DNA of 64,000 bases. Origin: a virus. The notes beneath the pieces were generated by a model that searched no databases, was not told where the DNA came from, and worked only from the letters and a program-made list of their open reading frames with translations. Where the stretch lies: IMG/VR virus record IMGVR_UViG_3300030085_002462; one strand, written 5' to 3'. Made by a program: the position numbers and the translations under genes. How positions within the stretch are numbered: the first letter of the stretch is position 1; the number at the start of each line of letters is the position of its first letter. Positions 43,252 to 54,575 of the stretch are shown here, one piece after another.

Positions 43252-46200
43252 ATGGCACTAACCCGTCTTAAAAATATCATCACGTCTAGGACAGGACGTA
43301 TTATCTACGTCAACCCTGACGACTTCGATGCGTCTGACGCATACGACAATAGAGGTAACTCCGCGCTGCGTCCTTTTAAGACATTGCAACGTGCATTCCT
43401 TGAGGTAGCACGTTTCTCATATAGAGTGGGTCTATCTAACGACGAATTTGACGCATTCTCAATCTATCTGTATCCATCTGAATATGTTATTGACAACCGT
43501 CCTGGTACGGCAGACTTCAATAGCATTCAACCATTCAACGAAAACACAAACTTCGATCTAACGTCACCCTCTAACGAGTTGTATAAATTCAACTCTGCTC
43601 AGGGTGGCATTGTCGTACCTAGAGGTTGTAGTGTTATTGGATCAGACCTTCGTCGTACTAAAATTGTGCCGAAGTATGTACCCTATCCTACAGTTAGTGG
43701 TGCGCTCGGTATTACAGCATCTAACGAACCACTACCAACTGCTATCTTCAAACTAACTGGTGGTTGTTATTTCTGGCAGATGTCATTCTTTGATGGTGAC
43801 ACCACTGGTGTTTACTATCGTGATGATCTTGCTACTATTGCCCCTAACTTCTCTCACCACAAACTCACTTGTTTTGAGTTTGCTAATGTAGCAGATCTGG
43901 AGCTTTACTATCAGAAGATCTCGAAAGCATACGCTACAATTCCTGATACCTCTGGTATTGTATCTCAGGACCAGATTCAGGCAAGAATCGAAGAAAACAG
44001 AATCGTTGGTCCTATTTCGGACGAATTTGCAGTATCGCAGATTATTAGAAATGGACAAACAGCAACAGCATTCACCGTGGATGAATTGGGTAACCCCAAA
44101 AACCACGGATTCTCTGTGGGTGTGGCAGTTAATATTTCTGGTGTCACTGGTCCTACTGATCAGGATGCTCTACTTTATAACGGGTCATTCCTAGTTACGT
44201 CTGCACAAGGTAACCAGTTTACCTATCAGATGTCAGCAGAGCCCACGGGTAACGCACTTGGCAGTAATGTTCTTGTTAAGGTTGAGATCGATACTGTTGA
44301 CTCTGCATCACCATATGTCTTTAACTGCTCGCTAAGATCAGTTTGGGGTATTGGTGGTATGCACGCAGATGGATCTCGTGCAACTGGTTTCAAATCAATG
44401 GTTGTTGCCCAGTTTACTGGTATTTCTCTACAGAAAGACGATCGTGCATTTGTGGTGTATAATCCAACAAACGGAGCGTATGAAGCGCAAGCGAGTGGAT
44501 CTGGTGCACACATTAATGGATTGGCAAAATACCGTAAAGGATGGCGTCACTGCCATATTAAGGCATCCAATGACGCATTCATTCAGGTTGTGTCTGTGTT
44601 CGCTGTGGGATTTGGTGATCATTTCTTCTCTGACAGTGGTGGTGACCTTTCTATTACCAACAGTAATAGTAACTTCGGAAATACGTCTCTTAGATCCAAG
44701 GGATTTAAGGCAGCAGCATTTACAAAGGATAAGGCAGGACAGATTACGCATGTAATCCCACCAAAAGCAATTACTGATATTGAAGAATTATCTGTTAACT
44801 GGGTGTCTTTCGATATTACTAAGACAAAATCGGTTGCTGACCCAACAAAACTTTACTTGTATGGATATACCACAGAGGCGGGAAGACCTCCCTCAAAAAT
44901 ACAAGGTTATACTGTTGGTGCGCGACGTGATGATGTTAACACACCTGATCGTATCTATGTACTCCTAAGAGCATCAGGATCTACAGACCCAACAACACAC
45001 TACGCTGATATCAACCCTGCTGGTAAATCTGTTACTGGCACAAGAGCAGGTGATGATGATTCTCCTATTAAATGGGATGAATCTAACTCTGGATGGTATC
45101 TGCAAGTTGATGGATCAGTTAACACCATTTACACGACACTACAGGCAAACCCACTGTATCAAAACTTAGGTTATACACCTAACTCTTTTGTTAGAAGAAT
45201 TCCTGATTCAAGAAACCTTGTCGATAGAATCTATCGTTATCGTTATGTCCTTGATAAGGATGCATTCCCTGTGCCCAGAGTGCCCATCACTGGTTTCGTG
45301 CTACAACCTAGATCCAGTGAAACTAACTCTCCTGCATATACAAAGACATATTACATCTACTCAGTAGAAACACATCAAGTATTTGAAAGAGGTGTTACGG
45401 ATGGTATTTACTATCTGACACTGTTGAATGCTTCGGTGTCACCATCTACATCTAACTTCAACGATTTCTTCTTCTCACAGCAGACAGTTGATCTGTATCC
45501 TGCATTTGACAGAGATAACCCTGTCGGTGATCCACAGGCAGCAGTATCTGTTGCAGATAATGAAACGTTGGGTCTGGTGTATACAACTGATGGTGCATCA
45601 CCTGTTGCTAACATTGATACTGAGAGATCTATCACGAAAGAAACTTCACAGTATTACTTGCTTGAATCTGAAAATAACATCGGATACAACACTACATCTA
45701 ACCTGTTGAATGGTATTAGTGTTACAGCAAGACTTGGTGATGAAGAAGAGCGTAAGATTCCATTGAAACTTAACGCTGACAATAGTGTGCAACCTATTCT
45801 CGTAGAATTGAGAAGATATTCTATTCTTAGAGCATCTGGTCACACGTTTGAGTATCTTGGATTTGGTCCAGGTAACTATTCAACTGCATTCCCATCCACA
45901 CAGGTTGAGGTGCTAACACCCGAGCAAGTTAGACTGTCACAGTCTCTCAAAGAAGCATCAGGTGTTGCATACTACTCTGGTGTTAACAGTGATGGTGAGT
46001 TGTTTGTTGGTAACCAGGTTATCAACCCAGTTACAGGTCAGATCACAAACGAAGATATTGCACAACTGAATGTGTTGGGTGAAGAAGACACAACTATCGA
46101 GACATTCTCCGAGTTGGTGTTGACTGATAAACTAACCGTTATCGGTGGTGCATCTAACCAGTTGGAATCTGTATTCTCTGGTCCTGTTACCTTCCAGAGG

Positions 46201-46824
46201 AAAGTAACATCACAGGAGAATGTGCAGTCACTGGTATTTACATTCTCCAATGATGATGGCACCACATTGAAGCAACAATTCCTCGCTGAGGAATTAGGCA
46301 CTGGTTTGCCCGATGTTGACGCTGGTGGTGCATATGCAGACGGTGATATCTGTTACAACGTGGATTGGGAACCAGGACAAGCACTTGGTTGGATCTATGA
46401 CGCTGGTGACTGGTATAAGTTTGGATTGAGTGATACTACACCAATTACATCCCAGAGATATAATGGCGTCACTCATTATGGTATCGGTGAAGCACCTGAC
46501 GCTAACAATAGATTCAGGATTACTGGTAACGTAGCAGTTACTGGTGACATTGATGTGACTGGTAAATATGGTTGTGCTGATAAGTATGCACTTGCAACTG
46601 GCATAACTAATAGTAATAATGGTGTTGTTTACAATGGAGATGCAACAACAACAAGTTTCGCTGTGTCCGCAGGACACACAGCATACTCTCTGCTGGTATT
46701 CTTGAATGGTGTTTGTCAGGTGCCTGGTGTTGACTACACCGTGACATCTAACAGTGTTGACTTTAGTATTTCTTCACCACCTGGTAATGGTGATGTGATT
46801 CAAATTCGTGAATTGGTTATCTAA
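43252..46824 (+). CDS. Tail-fibre-like virion protein, 1190 aa
   Basis: Late promoter TAAATA at 43222; MALTRL.N....TGRIIYV...RPFKTLQRA start; C-terminal VFLNGVCQ.P..DYTV domain. Confidence 0.8.
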   Translation: MALTRLKNIITSRTGRIIYVNPDDFDASDAYDNRGNSALRPFKTLQRAFLEVARFSYRVGLSNDEFDAFSIYLYPSEYVIDNRPGTADFNSIQPFNENTNFDLTSPSNELYKFNSAQGGIVVPRGCSVIGSDLRRTKIVPKYVPYPTVSGALGITASNEPLPTAIFKLTGGCYFWQMSFFDGDTTGVYYRDDLATIAPNFSHHKLTCFEFANVADLELYYQKISKAYATIPDTSGIVSQDQIQARIEENRIVGPISDEFAVSQIIRNGQTATAFTVDELGNPKNHGFSVGVAVNISGVTGPTDQDALLYNGSFLVTSAQGNQFTYQMSAEPTGNALGSNVLVKVEIDTVDSASPYVFNCSLRSVWGIGGMHADGSRATGFKSMVVAQFTGISLQKDDRAFVVYNPTNGAYEAQASGSGAHINGLAKYRKGWRHCHIKASNDAFIQVVSVFAVGFGDHFFSDSGGDLSITNSNSNFGNTSLRSKGFKAAAFTKDKAGQITHVIPPKAITDIEELSVNWVSFDITKTKSVADPTKLYLYGYTTEAGRPPSKIQGYTVGARRDDVNTPDRIYVLLRASGSTDPTTHYADINPAGKSVTGTRAGDDDSPIKWDESNSGWYLQVDGSVNTIYTTLQANPLYQNLGYTPNSFVRRIPDSRNLVDRIYRYRYVLDKDAFPVPRVPITGFVLQPRSSETNSPAYTKTYYIYSVETHQVFERGVTDGIYYLTLLNASVSPSTSNFNDFFFSQQTVDLYPAFDRDNPVGDPQAAVSVADNETLGLVYTTDGASPVANIDTERSITKETSQYYLLESENNIGYNTTSNLLNGISVTARLGDEEERKIPLKLNADNSVQPILVELRRYSILRASGHTFEYLGFGPGNYSTAFPSTQVEVLTPEQVRLSQSLKEASGVAYYSGVNSDGELFVGNQVINPVTGQITNEDIAQLNVLGEEDTTIETFSELVLTDKLTVIGGASNQLESVFSGPVTFQRKVTSQENVQSLVFTFSNDDGTTLKQQFLAEELGTGLPDVDAGGAYADGDICYNVDWEPGQALGWIYDAGDWYKFGLSDTTPITSQRYNGVTHYGIGEAPDANNRFRITGNVAVTGDIDVTGKYGCADKYALATGITNSNNGVVYNGDATTTSFAVSAGHTAYSLLVFLNGVCQVPGVDYTVTSNSVDFSISSPPGNGDVIQIRELVI

Positions 46825-46853: not shown

Positions 46854-47777
46854 ATGGCAACTCAGATTATTGGCAATCAGATTAATCAGGTTACTCGTGC
46901 CATCATGGAGGCACTTCAGGTAACTGAGCAGATCAACCTGCCTAATCTTAACCAAACACAGATCAATGCCCTAGGCACACCTGCATACGGCACACTGGTG
47001 TATAACAGCACCGAAGATATGGCACAGATATATCTTCAGGATGCTGCACAAGGTGTACCTGGTTGGGATGATGTTGGTGGCGGTGGTCCCTCTGTTGGTG
47101 AAGAGTCAATCATTAGGACTAATGGTCCTAGAATTCAACAAAACATTACTGTTGGTCCTGTTGCTAACGGTGGTGACGAATTTACTAACGGATTCTCTGC
47201 AGGTCCGATTCAGATTGATAACGGATATACTGTAACAGTTGAAAATGGAGCACGATGGACTATCATCGGTGGTGAGGAAAACGACCTCTCTGAAGGTACT
47301 CCAGTCCAAGTGAAGTATGCTCAGACAGAACCACTGAGATATACTATTAGATCCCAAAATGTTAGTGATGGCGCAATTCCTGGTTTAGAAATTAATATCC
47401 AACCTACACACACTGACTCTAAGATTTTGTTGATTGCTAATATTATGTCAACTGGTCAACACGTCTCCAGTTTTGGATTCATGAGACAAATTGCTGGTGG
47501 TGGTCAAACAACTCTCGAACCATCGGGACATCCTGGTAACAACAGTAATACTGGCAATGGTCGTATTGCTACTTGGTATCGTGGTGATGACACGCCAGGT
47601 CACATCTATGCACATACTGTGATGTTTATGGATATGCCATCAACTCAAAATATGTGCACATATGTTGTGGGTGGCACAGCATCTTGGGGTGGAAGTATCA
47701 GAGATCTCTATATTAATGATAGAGATAGTAATGATATGAGAGGTATTTCTTCGTTTATGGCAATGGAGGTAAGATGA
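46854..47777 (+). CDS. Short fibre or virion structural protein
   Basis: Late promoter TAAATA at 46829; IRTN...I..N.T...NG.SAGPI.I..G.TVTV..GA.W motif followed by a tip domain. Confidence 0.75.
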   Translation: MATQIIGNQINQVTRAIMEALQVTEQINLPNLNQTQINALGTPAYGTLVYNSTEDMAQIYLQDAAQGVPGWDDVGGGGPSVGEESIIRTNGPRIQQNITVGPVANGGDEFTNGFSAGPIQIDNGYTVTVENGARWTIIGGEENDLSEGTPVQVKYAQTEPLRYTIRSQNVSDGAIPGLEINIQPTHTDSKILLIANIMSTGQHVSSFGFMRQIAGGGQTTLEPSGHPGNNSNTGNGRIATWYRGDDTPGHIYAHTVMFMDMPSTQNMCTYVVGGTASWGGSIRDLYINDRDSNDMRGISSFMAMEVR

Positions 47778-48085
47778 GATTGGATTTTAGTGATGAGATT
47801 AAAACACAGGCGATTGTACGTGTGTGTGGAGATCACTCTTTTACAATGACAGAAGGTGATTTGACTACGATTAAATTCGCAGATCCACATATCCGCGTCC
47901 CATCTGCATCACGTCTTGAAGCAATGTGTGAGGTCATTGCTAATGAAAAACGACTTGAGAAAAAACTACCACCTCCTCCTGTAACAATGGATCTCCTAGA
48001 AATGATCTGGGAAGATATTCATGCAGGGAAACTAAATAAGGAAGGTAGTTTTTACAATGTCCTTAAACCTTACATTGATAAATAA
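47774..48085 (+). CDS. Putative fibre assembly chaperone
   Basis: LLEMIWEDIHAGKL...GSFY motif; directly follows a fibre gene. Confidence 0.5.
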   Translation: MRLDFSDEIKTQAIVRVCGDHSFTMTEGDLTTIKFADPHIRVPSASRLEAMCEVIANEKRLEKKLPPPPVTMDLLEMIWEDIHAGKLNKEGSFYNVLKPYIDK

Positions 48086-48105: not shown

Positions 48106-48921
48106 ATGGCACAACTAAAACTTGGAGCGATTAAAGATCTAAGCGGCGTGAGTGGTTTTACATTCACTGCTGGAGGTGTGTCTGCTAACGGTGCTTTGGT
48201 CGTAACAGACCTTGTTATTGATGGAAGTGTTTCTGGTTCTGCCGTGGGCACATATGTGGTGCCAAGTGTAAGCGGACAGGCAAATAGATTTCTGACTAAC
48301 GACGGCAGTAGCATGAGTTGGGCAGAAGTTGCAACCTCTGCTGGTGTTAGATCCATGTCGGTCTATACTGGCAACAATACATGGAACAAACCTTCAGGTA
48401 CTAGATCTATTCTAGTAACTGTAACTGGTGCTGGAGGTGGTGGATCAGGATTCCATGAAGGTGGTGGTGCTGGTGGCACATCACAAAGACATATTGATGT
48501 GACTAACATTAACTCAGTTAGTGTTACAGTCGGATCACCTGGTGGCGGTGCTTACTACAACGGATGTGGTGGTAATGGTAACGCTTCTTCTTTTGGTAGT
48601 TACTTGTCTGCTAACGGTGGTGTTGGTGGTAACTGCTCACAGCAACACGCTGGAGGATTGGGTGGTCATGGATCAGGTGGCACACTAAATATCCATGGTG
48701 GTGGTAACGGAGGTCACGGATCTCACCACTCTTATGGTTGTGGTGTTTCTGCATCTAGTTACTGGGGTGGTGGACAACCTTCCTGTCATCATAGAAATCA
48801 TCACTACGCTCATTCCCATGAATCATATGCTGCATGGGGTGCAGGTGGTGGCGGCGCTGAATTCGGTTATCGTGGAGCACGCGGTAGAGAAGGAGTCGTT
48901 GTTGTCCTTGAGTATTATTGA
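48106..48921 (+). CDS. Glycine-rich, His-rich fibre or adhesin paralog 1
   Basis: Late promoter TAAATA at 48079; NRFLTNDGSSMSW shaft motif; VTVTGAGGGG...GREGVVVV..Y glycine-rich domain. Confidence 0.8.
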   Translation: MAQLKLGAIKDLSGVSGFTFTAGGVSANGALVVTDLVIDGSVSGSAVGTYVVPSVSGQANRFLTNDGSSMSWAEVATSAGVRSMSVYTGNNTWNKPSGTRSILVTVTGAGGGGSGFHEGGGAGGTSQRHIDVTNINSVSVTVGSPGGGAYYNGCGGNGNASSFGSYLSANGGVGGNCSQQHAGGLGGHGSGGTLNIHGGGNGGHGSHHSYGCGVSASSYWGGGQPSCHHRNHHYAHSHESYAAWGAGGGGAEFGYRGARGREGVVVVLEYY

Positions 48922-48944
48922 TAAATAACTAAAAAGTAAGTCTC

Positions 48945-49760
48945 ATGAGTATTCTTAAAACCAGTAATATCTATGATCTTACGGGCGTCTCGGGTTTCTC
49001 CTTCTCTGGAGGCGGCGTCACGGTGGAGGGTACTCTTACGGTCTCTACTTTGACGGTTAATGGTGCTATTGTTGGACAATCTTCTTACGTTTTGCCCTCA
49101 CAGTCAGGTAGCAGCGGTAAGTTTCTATCCAATGATGGTACTAAGTTACAATGGAAGGACTTAAGTGTTGAGTCTGGCATTAGATCAATGTCAGTCTATA
49201 CTGGTGGTAACACATGGAATAAACCCAACGGTGTTGGCACTATTCACGTTTTGGTTACTGGTGCTGGCGGCGGTGGATCTGGATTCGGTGAATCTGGTGG
49301 TGCTGGTGGTCACTCAGAGAAAGTAATTAACGTAGCAAATATTAACTCTGTAGGTATTACAGTTGGATCACCTGGCGGTGGTGCATACTATAATGGTTGC
49401 GGTGGTAATGGTAACGCATCAAGTTTTGGATCGTATCTATCAGCAAACGGCGGTGTTGGTGGCAACTGCTCACAACAGCACGCTGGTGGACTCGGTGGAC
49501 ATGGATCTGGCGGTGAATTAAACATCCACGGTGGTGGAGGATCTGGACACGGATCTTATCACTCCTATGGTCGTCACTATCCTGGTCCCTCATTCTGGGG
49601 TGGCGGACAACCTGGTTGTCATCACAGAAATCATCACTATGCACACTCTCATGAATCATATGCTGCATGGGGCGCTGGCGGTGGTGGTGCTGAGTTTGGT
49701 TATAGAGGTGCCCGAGGTCGTGAGGGTATTGTTGTTGTATACGAGTATTACGGCGATTAA
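48945..49760 (+). CDS. Glycine-rich, His-rich fibre or adhesin paralog 2
   Basis: Late promoter TAAATA at 48922; same architecture as paralog 1. Confidence 0.8.
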   Translation: MSILKTSNIYDLTGVSGFSFSGGGVTVEGTLTVSTLTVNGAIVGQSSYVLPSQSGSSGKFLSNDGTKLQWKDLSVESGIRSMSVYTGGNTWNKPNGVGTIHVLVTGAGGGGSGFGESGGAGGHSEKVINVANINSVGITVGSPGGGAYYNGCGGNGNASSFGSYLSANGGVGGNCSQQHAGGLGGHGSGGELNIHGGGGSGHGSYHSYGRHYPGPSFWGGGQPGCHHRNHHYAHSHESYAAWGAGGGGAEFGYRGARGREGIVVVYEYYGD

Positions 49761-49763
49761 TCA

Positions 49764-50570
49764 ATGAGTATCCTTAAAATTAACCACGTTAAAGACCTTA
49801 GCGGTATTGGTGGTTTCCAACTAGAAGCGGCAAACATTACCACAAATGGTACACTGAGAGTTACTGATCTCGCTATCAACGGTCAGGTCAATGGCACGGC
49901 GTCTAGTATTATTCCAGCGCTGCCTGGTAGTAATTACTATCTAACTACAAATGGTAGTAGTTTGAGTTGGCAGGAAGTTTCTTCATCTGGTGGATTCAAA
50001 TCCATGCAGGTATGGACAGGTAATGGCACATGGAGCAAACCTCAAGGAATTAGATCTATCCTTGTTAAAGTTGTTGGTGCTGGTGGCGGGGGATCAGGAT
50101 ATACTGAAGCAGGTGGTGCTGGTGGACATGGTGAAGTTATCGTTGATGTTAATAATGTAAATAGTGTTGGCGTTACTGTTGGATCACCAGGTGGTGGCGC
50201 ATATTATAATGGTTGTGGTGGTAATGGTAATGCATCATCATTTGGTGGATATGTATCTGCTAATGGTGGTACAGGTGCTAATTGTCATAACCAATACGCT
50301 GGTGGATTTGGTGGGCATGGATCTGGTGGTAACCTCAACTCACATGGTGGAGGTGGCACAGGTCACGGATCTCACTATTCTTATGGTAATATGATGGGCG
50401 GTGCATCCTATATGGGTGGATCTCAACCTGGTTGTCATCATAGAAATCATCATTATGCACACTCTCACGAGAGTTATGCTGCATGGGGTGCTGGTGGTAA
50501 CGGAGCAGAGTTCGGTTATCGCGGTGCACGCGGTAGAGAGGGTGTGGTAGTTGTCTATGAATATGCTTGA
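49764..50570 (+). CDS. Glycine-rich, His-rich fibre or adhesin paralog 3
   Basis: Same architecture; shares the identical CHHRNHHYAHSHESYAAWGA block. Confidence 0.8.
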   Translation: MSILKINHVKDLSGIGGFQLEAANITTNGTLRVTDLAINGQVNGTASSIIPALPGSNYYLTTNGSSLSWQEVSSSGGFKSMQVWTGNGTWSKPQGIRSILVKVVGAGGGGSGYTEAGGAGGHGEVIVDVNNVNSVGVTVGSPGGGAYYNGCGGNGNASSFGGYVSANGGTGANCHNQYAGGFGGHGSGGNLNSHGGGGTGHGSHYSYGNMMGGASYMGGSQPGCHHRNHHYAHSHESYAAWGAGGNGAEFGYRGARGREGVVVVYEYA

Positions 50571-50598
50571 TAAATAACTAAAGGAAACTTTTACGACA

Positions 50599-51096
50599 AT
50601 GACTAAAAGAGCAATCGTTAACGGCGAAACTGGGGCACTGAGTGATATCTGTGATCCTGGGGACGAGTTTGAGATCTATTCAGGACCTGATGCCACTCAG
50701 AAGTGGTGTGATGTGCCTGATGATACCACTTATGAGCACACCATGATCAATGGTAAGATCTGGCATCGTAGAGATCTAGAGGATAAGCAATTCACTGCTA
50801 CAACTGAGCGTGTACTTGCCTATGGTCCTATGGGTGAGCAGATGGACATGATGTATAAAGATCAAGTAGACGGTGGTACCCGTTGGAAAGATCATATTGC
50901 TAAGGTTAAAGCAAACCTTGCTGCACCATCATCCCTTGATGCATATGATAATGACCCCAAAAAGGTCCAACAGTATGGTAGGATGGCATGGGAAGCATAC
51001 GATGAGGCATATGAAATGCCTGGTGATCGTATGAGAGAAGCACAGGTAAGAATGATCCGTAACTTCGCAGCACAACCAGAAGCAAACAAAGAGTAA
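50599..51096 (+). CDS. Putative tail-fibre assembly chaperone
   Basis: Late promoter TAAATA at 50571; R..AY..MGEQMDMMYKD...G..RWKDHI.KVK motif common after fibre genes. Confidence 0.6.
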   Translation: MTKRAIVNGETGALSDICDPGDEFEIYSGPDATQKWCDVPDDTTYEHTMINGKIWHRRDLEDKQFTATTERVLAYGPMGEQMDMMYKDQVDGGTRWKDHIAKVKANLAAPSSLDAYDNDPKKVQQYGRMAWEAYDEAYEMPGDRMREAQVRMIRNFAAQPEANKE

Positions 51097-51112: not shown

Positions 51113-52714
51113 ATGAAGGTAGAGTCAATTTGTATCGTTGGCGGTGGATCTGCTGGTTGGATGTCAGCAGCACTACTCGCAAAGCAGTTTCCTGATATTG
51201 AAATTGCTCTAGTTGAATCTGATAAAAAACCCACTATTGGTGTGGGTGAAAGTACGTTGGGGCACTTCAATCGTTACCTCCTCCACATGGAGTTGGAGGA
51301 TGAAGATTGGATGCCCCATTGTAATGCAACGTACAAAACATCCATTGCATTTAGAAACTTTAAGCACGGTAAGGGTGAGAGATTCCAGTATCCATTTGGT
51401 GGACTAGCATATCAAGAACCATATAGGACTGACATTCAGAGATTCTATGAGTTGCAGATCCTGCATCCCGAGTTATATCCTGATGATGAGTTTGCTCGCT
51501 TTTGGAATCCATCAACATTGCTGACTGAGCAACAGAAGATTGCTAGTACAGGCATCGATGGTATGATGTGGGACCATAATAACGACAGCGCATATCATTT
51601 TGATGCTGAGTTGTTTGGTATCTATTTGAAAGAGCATCATTGTCAACGTGTCCAGCATGTGGTTGGTCATGTGGATCATGTTGTTAAGACTGAAGATGGA
51701 TATATTAAAGCGATTGTAACTGCTGAGGGTAGTTACATTGAAGCGGACATGTATATTGACTGCACAGGATTTAAGTCACTACTCCTTGAAGGATTCATGG
51801 GTAGTGAGTGGGAATCATTCAAAGATGTGCTATTCAATGATAGAGCAGTAGCAACACAGATTCCATACAAGAATCGTGAAACTGAAATGGATACCTATAC
51901 TGATTGTGATGCACAGTCAGCAGGGTGGGTATGGAATATCCCGTTGTGGAATCGTGTTGGCACGGGATATGTTTACTCATCTGATTACATCAATGAGTGT
52001 GAAGCAGAGCAAGAATTTAGAGAGTATTTGAGTGAGCGATATTCGCCCGAGATTGCCCAAAATGCTGAAATGCGTCACATTAAGATCAAGCATGGTAAGC
52101 ATAAAGAGGCATGGGTTAAGAATGTTGTGGGTATTGGATTGTCCTATGGTTTCCTAGAACCATTGGAATCTACTGGTCTCATGACTACACATGAGAATAT
52201 TCTATTCTTTGCTAATGCACTGGCACGCCGTAATGGTCTACTGACTGATGTTGATCGTAAGTCTTTCAACTTCACAGTGGATAAGGTGCTGGAGAATATG
52301 AAACTATTCGTTGCTCAGCATTATTATCTGACACAACGTCAAGATAATAAGTATTGGCGTGATGTTACCAACATTGAGTTGGGACATGGTGAGTGGAGAT
52401 TGGGGACAGAATATTCTACGCTTCAGTCTAAGCAGGAATACTATAACCTACTTGACAGAGCAACAAATAAATTCTATGATGGTGACACCTTTGGTGGTTT
52501 GCTGTATATCTCAGCAGGTCAAGGTTACCGACCTATATCTTCGTGGGACTTCAAAGTAAGATGTAAGAATGTCCCAATGCATTATGGTCAAGTAACTAGC
52601 ACTCATGAGTGGTATCAGAAGGAAAAGCAAAGACTGTTGGATATCATTGATGATATGCCTACACATTATGAATATCTAAGGGATCGTATTTATGGCAAAG
52701 AAACCGTGGATTAG
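51113..52714 (+). CDS. Flavin-dependent (tryptophan-halogenase/PrnA-like) halogenase 2
   Basis: GGGSAG, IGVGEST, CNATYK, YHFDA, YIDCTGF, GWVWNIP, FLEPLESTG. Confidence 0.92.
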   Translation: MKVESICIVGGGSAGWMSAALLAKQFPDIEIALVESDKKPTIGVGESTLGHFNRYLLHMELEDEDWMPHCNATYKTSIAFRNFKHGKGERFQYPFGGLAYQEPYRTDIQRFYELQILHPELYPDDEFARFWNPSTLLTEQQKIASTGIDGMMWDHNNDSAYHFDAELFGIYLKEHHCQRVQHVVGHVDHVVKTEDGYIKAIVTAEGSYIEADMYIDCTGFKSLLLEGFMGSEWESFKDVLFNDRAVATQIPYKNRETEMDTYTDCDAQSAGWVWNIPLWNRVGTGYVYSSDYINECEAEQEFREYLSERYSPEIAQNAEMRHIKIKHGKHKEAWVKNVVGIGLSYGFLEPLESTGLMTTHENILFFANALARRNGLLTDVDRKSFNFTVDKVLENMKLFVAQHYYLTQRQDNKYWRDVTNIELGHGEWRLGTEYSTLQSKQEYYNLLDRATNKFYDGDTFGGLLYISAGQGYRPISSWDFKVRCKNVPMHYGQVTSTHEWYQKEKQRLLDIIDDMPTHYEYLRDRIYGKETVD

Positions 52715-53513
52715 ATTCTACTCAATCGAGAAGGGTTTATCACAAAGATTCCCGTGGATGCCATCGCGTAAGTTGTCGCGACCATGGAGAGTTAAAGCAC
52801 AGAAAGAGTTATCTAAGGATCCAGTTACCCGTTGTCCAGCATTAAAACTGCAACGCATGGTGCAGATGTCTAAGGTAACTAATCAACCCACTATCTTTCC
52901 AATGCACGCGGCAACTTGCCCAGCATTGACAGGTGTAATGGATAGTGGTTTTATAATGACTGCTGCATATGATTTCGTTATCTCCATGGAAAATGGAGAA
53001 ATGTTTTTCATGTCTAAAGGTGAAAGAATTCATTTACATTCACCTGAGCAGACTGATGGTATGCGTGAGTATATTAGTGACAAACCTATTCACCCTGTTG
53101 TAATTAAGTTACAACAACCATGGAGAGTCCATGCACATAAAGATGTATGCTTCTTGCAGTTGCCAGTAACATATCATAAAGAGGAGCGATTCTCTGTTGC
53201 TACTGGTATTGCAGATCCTACATATTCATATGAGATCAATTTACAACTCTTTTGGCATATGCTAGAGGATGGACAATATCTCATTGAAGCGGGCACACCA
53301 CTCGCACAGTGGATACCTATCCACAGAGATTATCTCAATCCGAGTAACTTCAACGTTGAGATAGAAGATGCAAATGATGACGATTATGTTGCTGAGGATT
53401 ATTGGCAATATCATATGAGAAACACGTTTGCAGAATTACAACCACTACAAGTGAGAAAGAAAATACACCAATTCATTGTCTCACTAAATAAAAACAGCAA
53501 GAGGTTTGAGTAA
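52692..53513 (+). CDS. Conserved cyanophage hypothetical protein (beta-rich)
   Basis: TCPA...MDSGFI..AAYDF, IKL..PW, GTPLAQWIPI. Confidence 0.75.
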   Translation: MAKKPWIRFYSIEKGLSQRFPWMPSRKLSRPWRVKAQKELSKDPVTRCPALKLQRMVQMSKVTNQPTIFPMHAATCPALTGVMDSGFIMTAAYDFVISMENGEMFFMSKGERIHLHSPEQTDGMREYISDKPIHPVVIKLQQPWRVHAHKDVCFLQLPVTYHKEERFSVATGIADPTYSYEINLQLFWHMLEDGQYLIEAGTPLAQWIPIHRDYLNPSNFNVEIEDANDDDYVAEDYWQYHMRNTFAELQPLQVRKKIHQFIVSLNKNSKRFE

Positions 53514-53515
53514 TC

Positions 53516-53965
53516 ATGTCTGACAACACTTTGGGTAACCTTGAATCGACATCGCGTAATGTCAAGGAAATCACAGAATATGACATCGACAAGGTGGCAG
53601 GAGTTGAGACCACCGAAGAAGTCAGGGAAAAACTTGAAGCAACTAAAATTGAAGCAGGAGTGCTAATCTCCTATGATCAACTGGTTGTTAATTTCCTACA
53701 ACAATATGAAGATGCTAAAGAGGATCTTCTCAAGATGCAAACTGCACTTGATAACCTGCACTACACATCTACAGTGACTAAGATTTCACTGAAAGAGATG
53801 CAGGATAAGAAAGATTTTATGCATCAACTCCACGGTGCTATTGAAGCGCTGTATCTTTATCAGAAGCATGTTGATCCCAACGTGACTGATAAACCATGGA
53901 CATTTGAAGACCCTGAATATGATGAAACCACAATCACTGCCGACCCCACCACACAGGAAGGTTGA
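53516..53965 (+). CDS. Acidic coiled-coil hypothetical protein
   Basis: Late promoter TAAATA at 53485; heptad-like helices. Confidence 0.7.
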   Translation: MSDNTLGNLESTSRNVKEITEYDIDKVAGVETTEEVREKLEATKIEAGVLISYDQLVVNFLQQYEDAKEDLLKMQTALDNLHYTSTVTKISLKEMQDKKDFMHQLHGAIEALYLYQKHVDPNVTDKPWTFEDPEYDETTITADPTTQEG

Positions 53966-54575
53966 TCTACTATTTCCCACACCATTATGGACATTTGATG
54001 GGTGTGGGTTAGATACAAAAGAAATTACAGATTTCTGTTATGTAATTAAGGACGAAGGTCCTGGTAGAAAGGTAAGTAATATCGGTGACAATGCATATCA
54101 GTCACTAGATTTTATGCCCTCCATCCTACCCCGTACGCCCCTGTATGCCCTCTATAATAAGATTATGGAGTGTGCATACTCTGCTGCCGATGAATGGGGT
54201 TTCCAAGGGTATAAACTAGACATGGGTAATCTCTGGATTAATATCAATGGGAGAGCAGCATCTAACATGGTGCACACTCATCCTGGTTGTATATTGTCTG
54301 GAGTTTATTATGCTAAACTACCATCATGTTGTGAGGGTAGTCTTGTGTTGTGTGATACCTATGAGAGACAACATATGAAACAGTATTGGGCGGATCAAGG
54401 TAATATCAATAAGTATGATGATCTGAATAAGGATGAGCACACTGTTTATCCTAAGGAAGATAGTATGCATATATTTCCTGCATGGGTGCCACATTATGTG
54501 GATCCAAATATGAATCCTGATGGTGATGATCGTATTAGTATCAGTTTTAACCTCAGAGTGAGACAGTTTCGATGA
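53919..54575 (+). CDS. 2OG-Fe(II) oxygenase-like protein (TIGR02466-like)
   Basis: LFPTP, LWININ...NMVHTHPGCILSGVYY, IFPAWVPHYV, RISISFNL. Confidence 0.88.
   Translation: MMKPQSLPTPPHRKVDLLFPTPLWTFDGCGLDTKEITDFCYVIKDEGPGRKVSNIGDNAYQSLDFMPSILPRTPLYALYNKIMECAYSAADEWGFQGYKLDMGNLWININGRAASNMVHTHPGCILSGVYYAKLPSCCEGSLVLCDTYERQHMKQYWADQGNINKYDDLNKDEHTVYPKEDSMHIFPAWVPHYVDPNMNPDGDDRISISFNLRVRQFR

Follow-up and report, generated by a model that had tools for sequence, protein, structure and literature searches.

Three tandem fibre-knob paralogs of a T4-like cyanophage point to concerted evolution confined to the knob domain

The 64,000-nt stretch of DNA analysed here (the window) spans bases 64029-128028 of the complete 186,016-bp virus record IMGVR_UViG_3300030085_002462, whose closest isolates are the cyanophage P-TIM40 and the Synechococcus phage S-WAM1, T4-like cyanomyoviruses of the family Kyanoviridae. 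It contains three tandem paralogous genes, designated A, B and C (W_1, W_2 and W_3 by gene position in the trees), whose products share an identical His-rich stretch of 20 residues near their C-termini. Sequence comparison with related phages indicates that the triplet is ancient and syntenic, that its N-terminal units are orthologous across phages and have diverged by gene position, and that the C-terminal knobs evolve in concert within each genome. The best reading of these patterns is episodic gene conversion that is confined to the knob and followed by purifying selection, the last event in this phage being old; the locus would then offer a clear case, in nature, of phage genes in which concerted evolution is limited to one domain. 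Together with a His scaffold placed at the knob tip and three fibre species that are made late and folded with the help of a neighbouring product, this makes up a reading to which we assign a probability of roughly 60%.

An earlier note on this DNA, made from the letters alone, had described the 20-mer, two further blocks identical among the paralogs, three conserved cysteines, divergent N-terminal halves and codons that differ only synonymously, and all of these descriptions were reproduced on recount. The 20-mer CHHRNHHYAHSHESYAAWGA starts at residue 227 in A, 225 in B and 224 in C and matches exactly in all three (Table 1), the identical run extending to 22 residues (CHHRNHHYAHSHESYAAWGA followed by GG). 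The blocks TVGSPGGGAYYNGCGGNGNASSFG and GAEFGYRGARGREG are likewise identical, and C154, C177 and C227 are common to the three proteins. The proportion of nonsynonymous differences (pN, Nei-Gojobori) is 0.36-0.44 in the N-terminal 85 codons versus 0.11-0.17 in the C-terminal 141 codons, and the proportion of synonymous differences (pS) is 0.72-0.79 and 0.62-0.66, respectively. Within the 20-mer, 7 codons differ between A and B, 9 between A and C and 6 between B and C, every one of them synonymous, including serine TCA versus AGT; these 6-9 of 19 degenerate codons do not depart significantly from the ~10 expected at full saturation. With synonymous sites saturated or nearly so, recent copying is excluded, and it is purifying selection that maintains the identity. 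The earlier note had reached the same view; the concerted evolution of the knobs was no part of it. The comparison of nonsynonymous and synonymous rates that it had called for, in which a synonymous rate near zero would point to gene conversion, yields the C-terminal pS given above, which is far from zero.

Identity through a recent duplication or a recent gene conversion would suit the tandem layout, the identical peptide blocks and a small synonymous deficit at residues 201-243, where 9-11 synonymous differences are found against ~17 expected (p 0.0025-0.04 per pair). It is nevertheless very improbable, being contradicted by the synonymous-site counts: pS in the knob and codon differences near saturation argue against it, as do a longest identical DNA run of only 17-23 nt between any two of the genes and N-terminal domains whose orthologues in other phages lie at the same gene position. 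The deficit at residues 201-243 is probably a weak remnant of a homogenisation long ago. The fraction of differing codons at positions carrying the same residue, a measure with fewer assumptions than pS, is 0.45-0.50 among A, B and C, 0.52 ± 0.055 between genes of different phages and 0.556 for fully saturated sites given the codon usage of these genes. The codon differences thus do not exceed the neutral expectation and give no sign of active recoding, and the idea that the tandem copies were recoded to avoid recombination with each other was rejected.

Trees of the two halves of the genes (N-terminal 85 residues versus knob residues 131-271; IQ-TREE on 26 genes and FastTree on 58 genes) differ in what they group, and the FastTree picture is the same as that of IQ-TREE for both halves. 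The N-terminal domains group by gene position, with 3 label changes versus 11.8 when labels are shuffled: W_1 lies in the position-1 clade (support 98/94), W_3 lies in the position-3 clade (78/96), and W_2 joins the position-2 genes in FastTree, its placement in IQ-TREE being unresolved. The knobs cluster by genome: A, B and C together form a clade (support 100/99), and knob clades by gene position are rejected by the approximately unbiased test (p 2e-6 and 0.002). Seventeen residues and the loop length are common to A, B and C and are found in none of 21 close-clade genes. Two relatives carry young gene-conversion tracts, with identical DNA runs of up to 73 nt among their copies and a knob codon difference of 0.22-0.27 within L008 and 0.31-0.34 within L015, versus 0.52 between genomes. 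The six-fold codon classes of Ser, Arg and Leu, used as markers of DNA ancestry by position versus genome, switch too often to decide. Because the N-terminal parts follow position, the knobs follow genome and relatives hold young tracts, the identity of the 20-mer is best explained by old homogenisation and subsequent purifying selection. With the last homogenisation long past, synonymous sites would have drifted back near saturation with the protein frozen by purifying selection.

By fold and gene context, the three products are predicted to be fibre-tip proteins. All of them match phrog_863 (PHROG 863) over their full length and Pfam PF21722 (Gly_rich_2) over residues ~85-267, the latter scoring 40.9, 34.1 and 27.0 bits where the cut-off is 24.3. 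A profile search against 1.8 billion representative proteins returned 3,093 relatives of 200-1258 residues, in which the domain is always C-terminal; one long relative (P0206) repeats the N-terminal unit (its residues 6-77) nine times, as would be expected for a fibre-shaft repeat. The AlphaFold2 (AF2) model, built from a diverse alignment of 83 sequences, has a mean predicted local distance difference test score (pLDDT) of 85.9, most of residues 81-200 scoring above 90; an alignment of 55 close homologues had given a pLDDT of only 47. In the model, residues 1-80 form a β-hairpin shaft unit with no helix except three residues, and residues 80-271 adopt a tumour necrosis factor (TNF)-like β-sandwich with a lattice of glycine-rich loops, which superposes on Pam3 gp24, the Bxb1 tail tip and the glycine-rich domain of ALK. 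This C-terminal fibre domain is encoded among tail genes, with the gene for a 1190-residue fibre and orf307 as neighbours. PDB sequence searches with two family profiles gave only glycine linkers of single-chain variable fragments and other composition artefacts, so that the relation to Pam3 is visible by fold alone. The fold and the family (PF21722, Pam3 gp24-type) are already known; new here are the paralog set with its domain-restricted concerted evolution, the subfamily His scaffold with a His-richer variant, and the halogenase link.

Pam3 gp24 is the homotrimeric tail fibre of a freshwater myocyanophage (PDB 7YPX and 7YFW), whose distal "flame" consists of a TNF-like β-sandwich and six loops along the fibre axis with two glycine-rich motifs each; the distal and less conserved loop tips are the proposed receptor site (PMC9608196). 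In contrast to that single gene, whose homotrimeric product docks to the baseplate through an N-terminal α-helical bundle, the present phage has three paralogs with a non-helical, shaft-repeat type of N-terminal domain. The Pfam match and the full-length PHROG match, with the domain ending at the C-terminus, tie the three proteins to the wider family, whereas the triplet with mosaic evolution and a halogenase neighbour marks a marine cyanophage subfamily. The likeness to the glycine-rich (TG) domain in the extracellular part of ALK and LTK (~21% identity), receptors of animals that engage their ligand in monomeric or dimeric form, carries no functional link.

The earlier note had likened the products to the T-even gp38 adhesins. 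A lattice of glycine-rich motifs is indeed common to both, but the likeness is only architectural: gp38 of phage S16 (PDB 6F45) has a three-layer sandwich and a β-helix middle domain and caps gp37 as a monomer, no sequence match to gp38 was found (Pfam GP38 at E up to 0.1; PDB profile searches), and the fold matches of the AF2 model do not include 6F45 but point to Pam3 gp24, the Bxb1 tail tip and ALK. The labels 'gp38' and 'tail fiber assembly' in databases probably trace to the Syn9 gene that bears the serial number 38 (L030:5001-5801, 'gp38') having been read as T4 gp38; RefSeq entries in L001, L002 and L032 carry the label 'tail fiber assembly'.

The 20-mer sits between the glycine-rich motifs WGGGQP (220-225) and AWGAGGGG (243-250), ahead of the final β-strand of the model (264-270). 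Given the loop scheme of Pam3 gp24 and this position in the sequence, it would form the turn, or distal tip, of the last glycine-rich loop. Across Gly_rich_2 at large, the turn lacks a His motif and is hypervariable, in its length as in its sequence, whereas in marine cyanophages the loop holds a near-invariant scaffold, H…[YFW][AS]HxHxxH. Its form is S-H-x-Q-x-N-Y-[AS]-H-x-H-Q-S-H-[AC]-A-W-G in the close clade and G-H-P-Q-G-G-H-F-A-H-N-H-Q-G-H in a distant clade of 45-55% identity. The conserved histidines (numbering of A) are H228, H236, H238 and H241, joined by H233 in the distant clade, and the H236-S-H238 pair, present in A, B and C, is near-invariant in the subfamily. All three copies of this phage have gained C227, H229, H232 and H233 and have exchanged H241 for Tyr, which makes the loop a derived, more His-rich version of the scaffold; each knob protein has 13-14 His, versus a mean of 8.9 in 118 relatives. 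As a side observation, C154 and C177 (48565-48567 and 48634-48636 in A) co-vary, both being Cys in the close clade and both Arg in S-WAM1 (L002) and L016, a pattern suggestive of two loop tips joined by a disulfide or paired in some other way.

The HxH motifs of T4 gp37 and gp12 bind Fe or Zn. The likeness to them lies in an HxH motif at a phage fibre tip; the T4 motifs are set in a trimeric needle or β-helix on the three-fold axis, whereas the knobs here differ in fold and their metal site is putative. We consider it most likely that the scaffold is a structural frame of the knob tip, probably one that keeps the distal loops together through metal binding or stacked His residues, and the H-x-H-x-x-H spacing after an aromatic residue fits a putative metal site. 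The positions that vary within the close clade are few (207-220, 229, 231 and 251-254), and only 207-220 differs among A, B and C. Now told apart from the fixed His scaffold, these nearby spots are the best candidates for setting host specificity.

The His-rich loop could itself be a receptor-contact epitope, kept invariant by an invariant target on the surface of marine picocyanobacteria. That the loop tips are the proposed receptor surface in Pam3 gp24 (PMC9608196), that the loop shows, across the family at large, the hypervariability expected of a specificity loop, and that the scaffold is conserved only in phages of Synechococcus and Prochlorococcus all speak for this idea. We nevertheless regard it as doubtful, since clades with only 45-55% identity and different hosts retain the scaffold, positions in or beside it (229, 231, 207-220 and 251-254) vary freely, as in a fixed frame with variable contacts, and its spacing after the aromatic residue is typical of metal ligands.

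Most related loci, in isolates as well as viral contigs, carry three tandem copies, always after orf307 and orf103. Two copies are found in S-WAM1, Syn9, S-SZBM1 and L016 and one in L026, with the same flanking cassette; copy number in this cassette accordingly ranges from one to three (L026, L002, L016, L030 and L031 compared with the window). The genome of this phage holds no copies of the knob gene beyond A, B and C, and identity to A is 72% for B and 68% for C. In P-TIM40 the middle paralog, gp043 (L001:7814-9403), has 529 residues and consists of the shaft unit, the knob and a 260-residue C-terminal extension that also occurs in L011 and L012 and is confined to the middle copy of P-TIM40-type phages. 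The extension has no match in Pfam; on visual inspection it looks lectin-like, with much Trp, Gly and Asn. The second copy of Syn9 has 392 residues with the glycine-rich domain in its C-terminal part.

These arrangements bear on how the three products assemble. In an obligate A:B:C heterotrimer, the three His loops would meet on the fibre axis around a common metal ion, which would explain why the knobs are identical. Three copies recur in a fixed order with position-specific N-terminal domains in many divergent phages, knobs co-vary within genomes even where genomes differ (229, 231 and 251-254), the gap of 3 nt between B and C suggests co-expression, and the T4 fibres offer the metal-binding precedent named above; TNF-like knobs of the same type also trimerise in Pam3 (PMC9608196). 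However, the cassette also occurs with two copies or one, Pam3 gp24 is a homotrimer with knob-to-knob contacts described as loose (PMC9608196), the extension found in the middle copy alone is easier to reconcile with a homotrimer than with a trimer in which one of the three chains differs, and the gene conversion seen directly in relatives accounts for the co-variation with no need of a constraint at an interface. The earlier note had raised an obligate heterotrimer; relatives that carry only one or two copies, together with the homotrimeric Pam3 fibre, make it unlikely.

We therefore favour three fibre or tip species as the most likely arrangement. Each gene would encode a short tail-fibre protein made of a shaft or attachment unit of ~80 residues and a TNF-like, glycine-rich knob, the knob being the distal receptor-binding part with the fold of Pam3 gp24. 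Through their distinct N-terminal domains, the three products would place one and the same knob at three separate sites or on three separate fibres. The His scaffold would hold the distal loops of the knob tip, by metal binding or His stacking, and the neighbouring variable residues would give specificity. The proteins would probably be made late, with folding aided by the product of orf165. On this account the family is a conserved set of up to three paralogs that have different attachment ends and a homogenised knob. T4-like marine cyanophages have been stated to lack recognisable long-fibre genes (PMC9146016; PMC2984593), and a family that is very abundant in metagenomes, labelled "hypothetical" or, misleadingly, "tail fiber assembly", can now be placed as a fibre knob of the Pam3 gp24 type.

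Several points weigh against the reading developed here. The conversion event in this phage has left no directly visible tract, and concerted change could in principle stem from parallel selection in place of conversion; we favour conversion because of the common loop length and the young tracts in relatives. The confidence of the AF2 model is moderate in the N-terminal domain (pLDDT 54-81), and the distal-tip placement of the 20-mer rests on the loop order of Pam3 gp24 combined with sequence position. In the virion proteome of S-SZBM1 (30 proteins), the two knob proteins are absent, while the neighbouring fibre, SSZBM1_52 (the orthologue of the 1190-residue protein), and the orthologue of orf307 are listed; the knob copies of the present phage would give tryptic peptides of 84-125 residues, and such very long peptides make the non-detection weak evidence against a place in the virion. 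Beyond these points, the literature on the adaptation of Syn9 and S-TIM4 and on the genomics of T4-like cyanophages leaves the knob proteins unmentioned, with no direct data on the family found there. The Pam3 paper makes no mention of a metal or of histidine (PMC9608196), and the receptor-binding protein ("RBP") of S-SCSM2R could not be tied to the knob family.

Table 1 Features of the knob cassette and its surroundings (positions in the window).
Feature	Coordinates	Strand	Details or basis
His-rich 20-mer of A (residues 227-246, flanked by WGGGQP and AWGAGGGG)	48784-48843	+	codon alignment
His-rich 20-mer of B	49617-49676	+	codon alignment
His-rich 20-mer of C	50433-50492	+	codon alignment
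Paralog A, position 1	48106-48921	+	271 aa; predicted shaft unit (residues 1-~80) and TNF-like/glycine-rich knob (~80-271)
Paralog B, position 2	48945-49760	+	271 aa; architecture as A
Paralog C, position 3	49764-50570	+	268 aa; architecture as A; starts 3 nt past the B stop
1190-aa tail fibre protein, conserved upstream neighbour	43252-46824	+	phrog_529, E 0; 84% identity to P-TIM40 gp039
orf307, conserved neighbour	46854-47777	+	phrog_7459, E 2e-104; orthologue SSZBM1_51 in the S-SZBM1 virion table
orf103, conserved small open reading frame upstream of the triplet	47774-48085	+	open reading frame list, synteny
orf165, conserved small open reading frame straight after the knob genes	50599-51096	+	synteny in nearly all loci
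Flavin-dependent halogenase, conserved neighbour, full-length VirX1 orthologue	51113-52714	+	Pfam Trp_halogenase, E 1e-103; PDB 6qgm
GATAAATAA, late-promoter-like element 21 nt before the A start, overlapping the orf103 stop	48077-48085	+	consensus match only
GATAAATAA, element 17 nt before the B start, overlapping the A stop	48920-48928	+	consensus match only
GATAAATAA, element 22 nt before the orf165 start, overlapping the C stop	50569-50577	+	consensus match only

The suggestion of late expression comes from the element GATAAATAA, which resembles the T4-type late promoter TATAAATA. Three of its four copies in the 64-kb window flank the knob cassette, against 0.74 expected by chance. The product of orf165 is a candidate fibre-assembly chaperone because its place and size match those of Pam3 gp25, a chaperone of 162 residues encoded beside gp24 (PMC9608196). 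Weak ESM-Atlas leads (0.86-0.88) connect it to tail-assembly-chaperone families; it has no PDB sequence match and no detectable similarity to Pam3 gp25.

The order knobs, orf165, halogenase (in one or two copies) and orf273 is kept in nearly all loci, including the clades of 45-55% identity and S-RIM44. It is not kept in S-B64, in which the halogenase is located elsewhere. In the window the conserved block comprises 51113-52714 (+) together with 50599-51096 and 52692-54575. Over residues 1-529 the halogenase aligns with VirX1 (PDB 6qgm) at E 3e-138; VirX1 is a cyanophage enzyme that forms trimers and whose active site is unusually open. Further downstream, 2-oxoglutarate/Fe(II) oxygenases are encoded. 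From the conserved synteny, the VirX1 orthology and the published properties of VirX1, one may speculate that the phage halogenase has the invariant aromatic and His-rich knob loops as its natural target and, together with the oxygenases, would modify Trp, Tyr or His of the fibre tip post-translationally. We hold this to be improbable; gene order is generally conserved in these phages, which weakens the argument. If it were true, the fibre tip would present a chemically tailored receptor-binding surface. The locus also suggests a connection between fibre tips and the cyanophage halogenase VirX1 that can be put to the test.

Long open reading frames in alternative frames or on the opposite strand at 48106-50570, such as 49357-49764 (- strand, 135 residues, rich in His and Arg), are by-products of DNA rich in Gly codons; none of them has family matches. 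The metagenome protein P0122 (270 residues) ends in 45 residues exactly equal to the C-terminus of B, and the part before them matches the +2 frame of B (compare the open reading frame at 49531-49767), which indicates a frameshifted gene call in another assembly, from a close relative of this phage.

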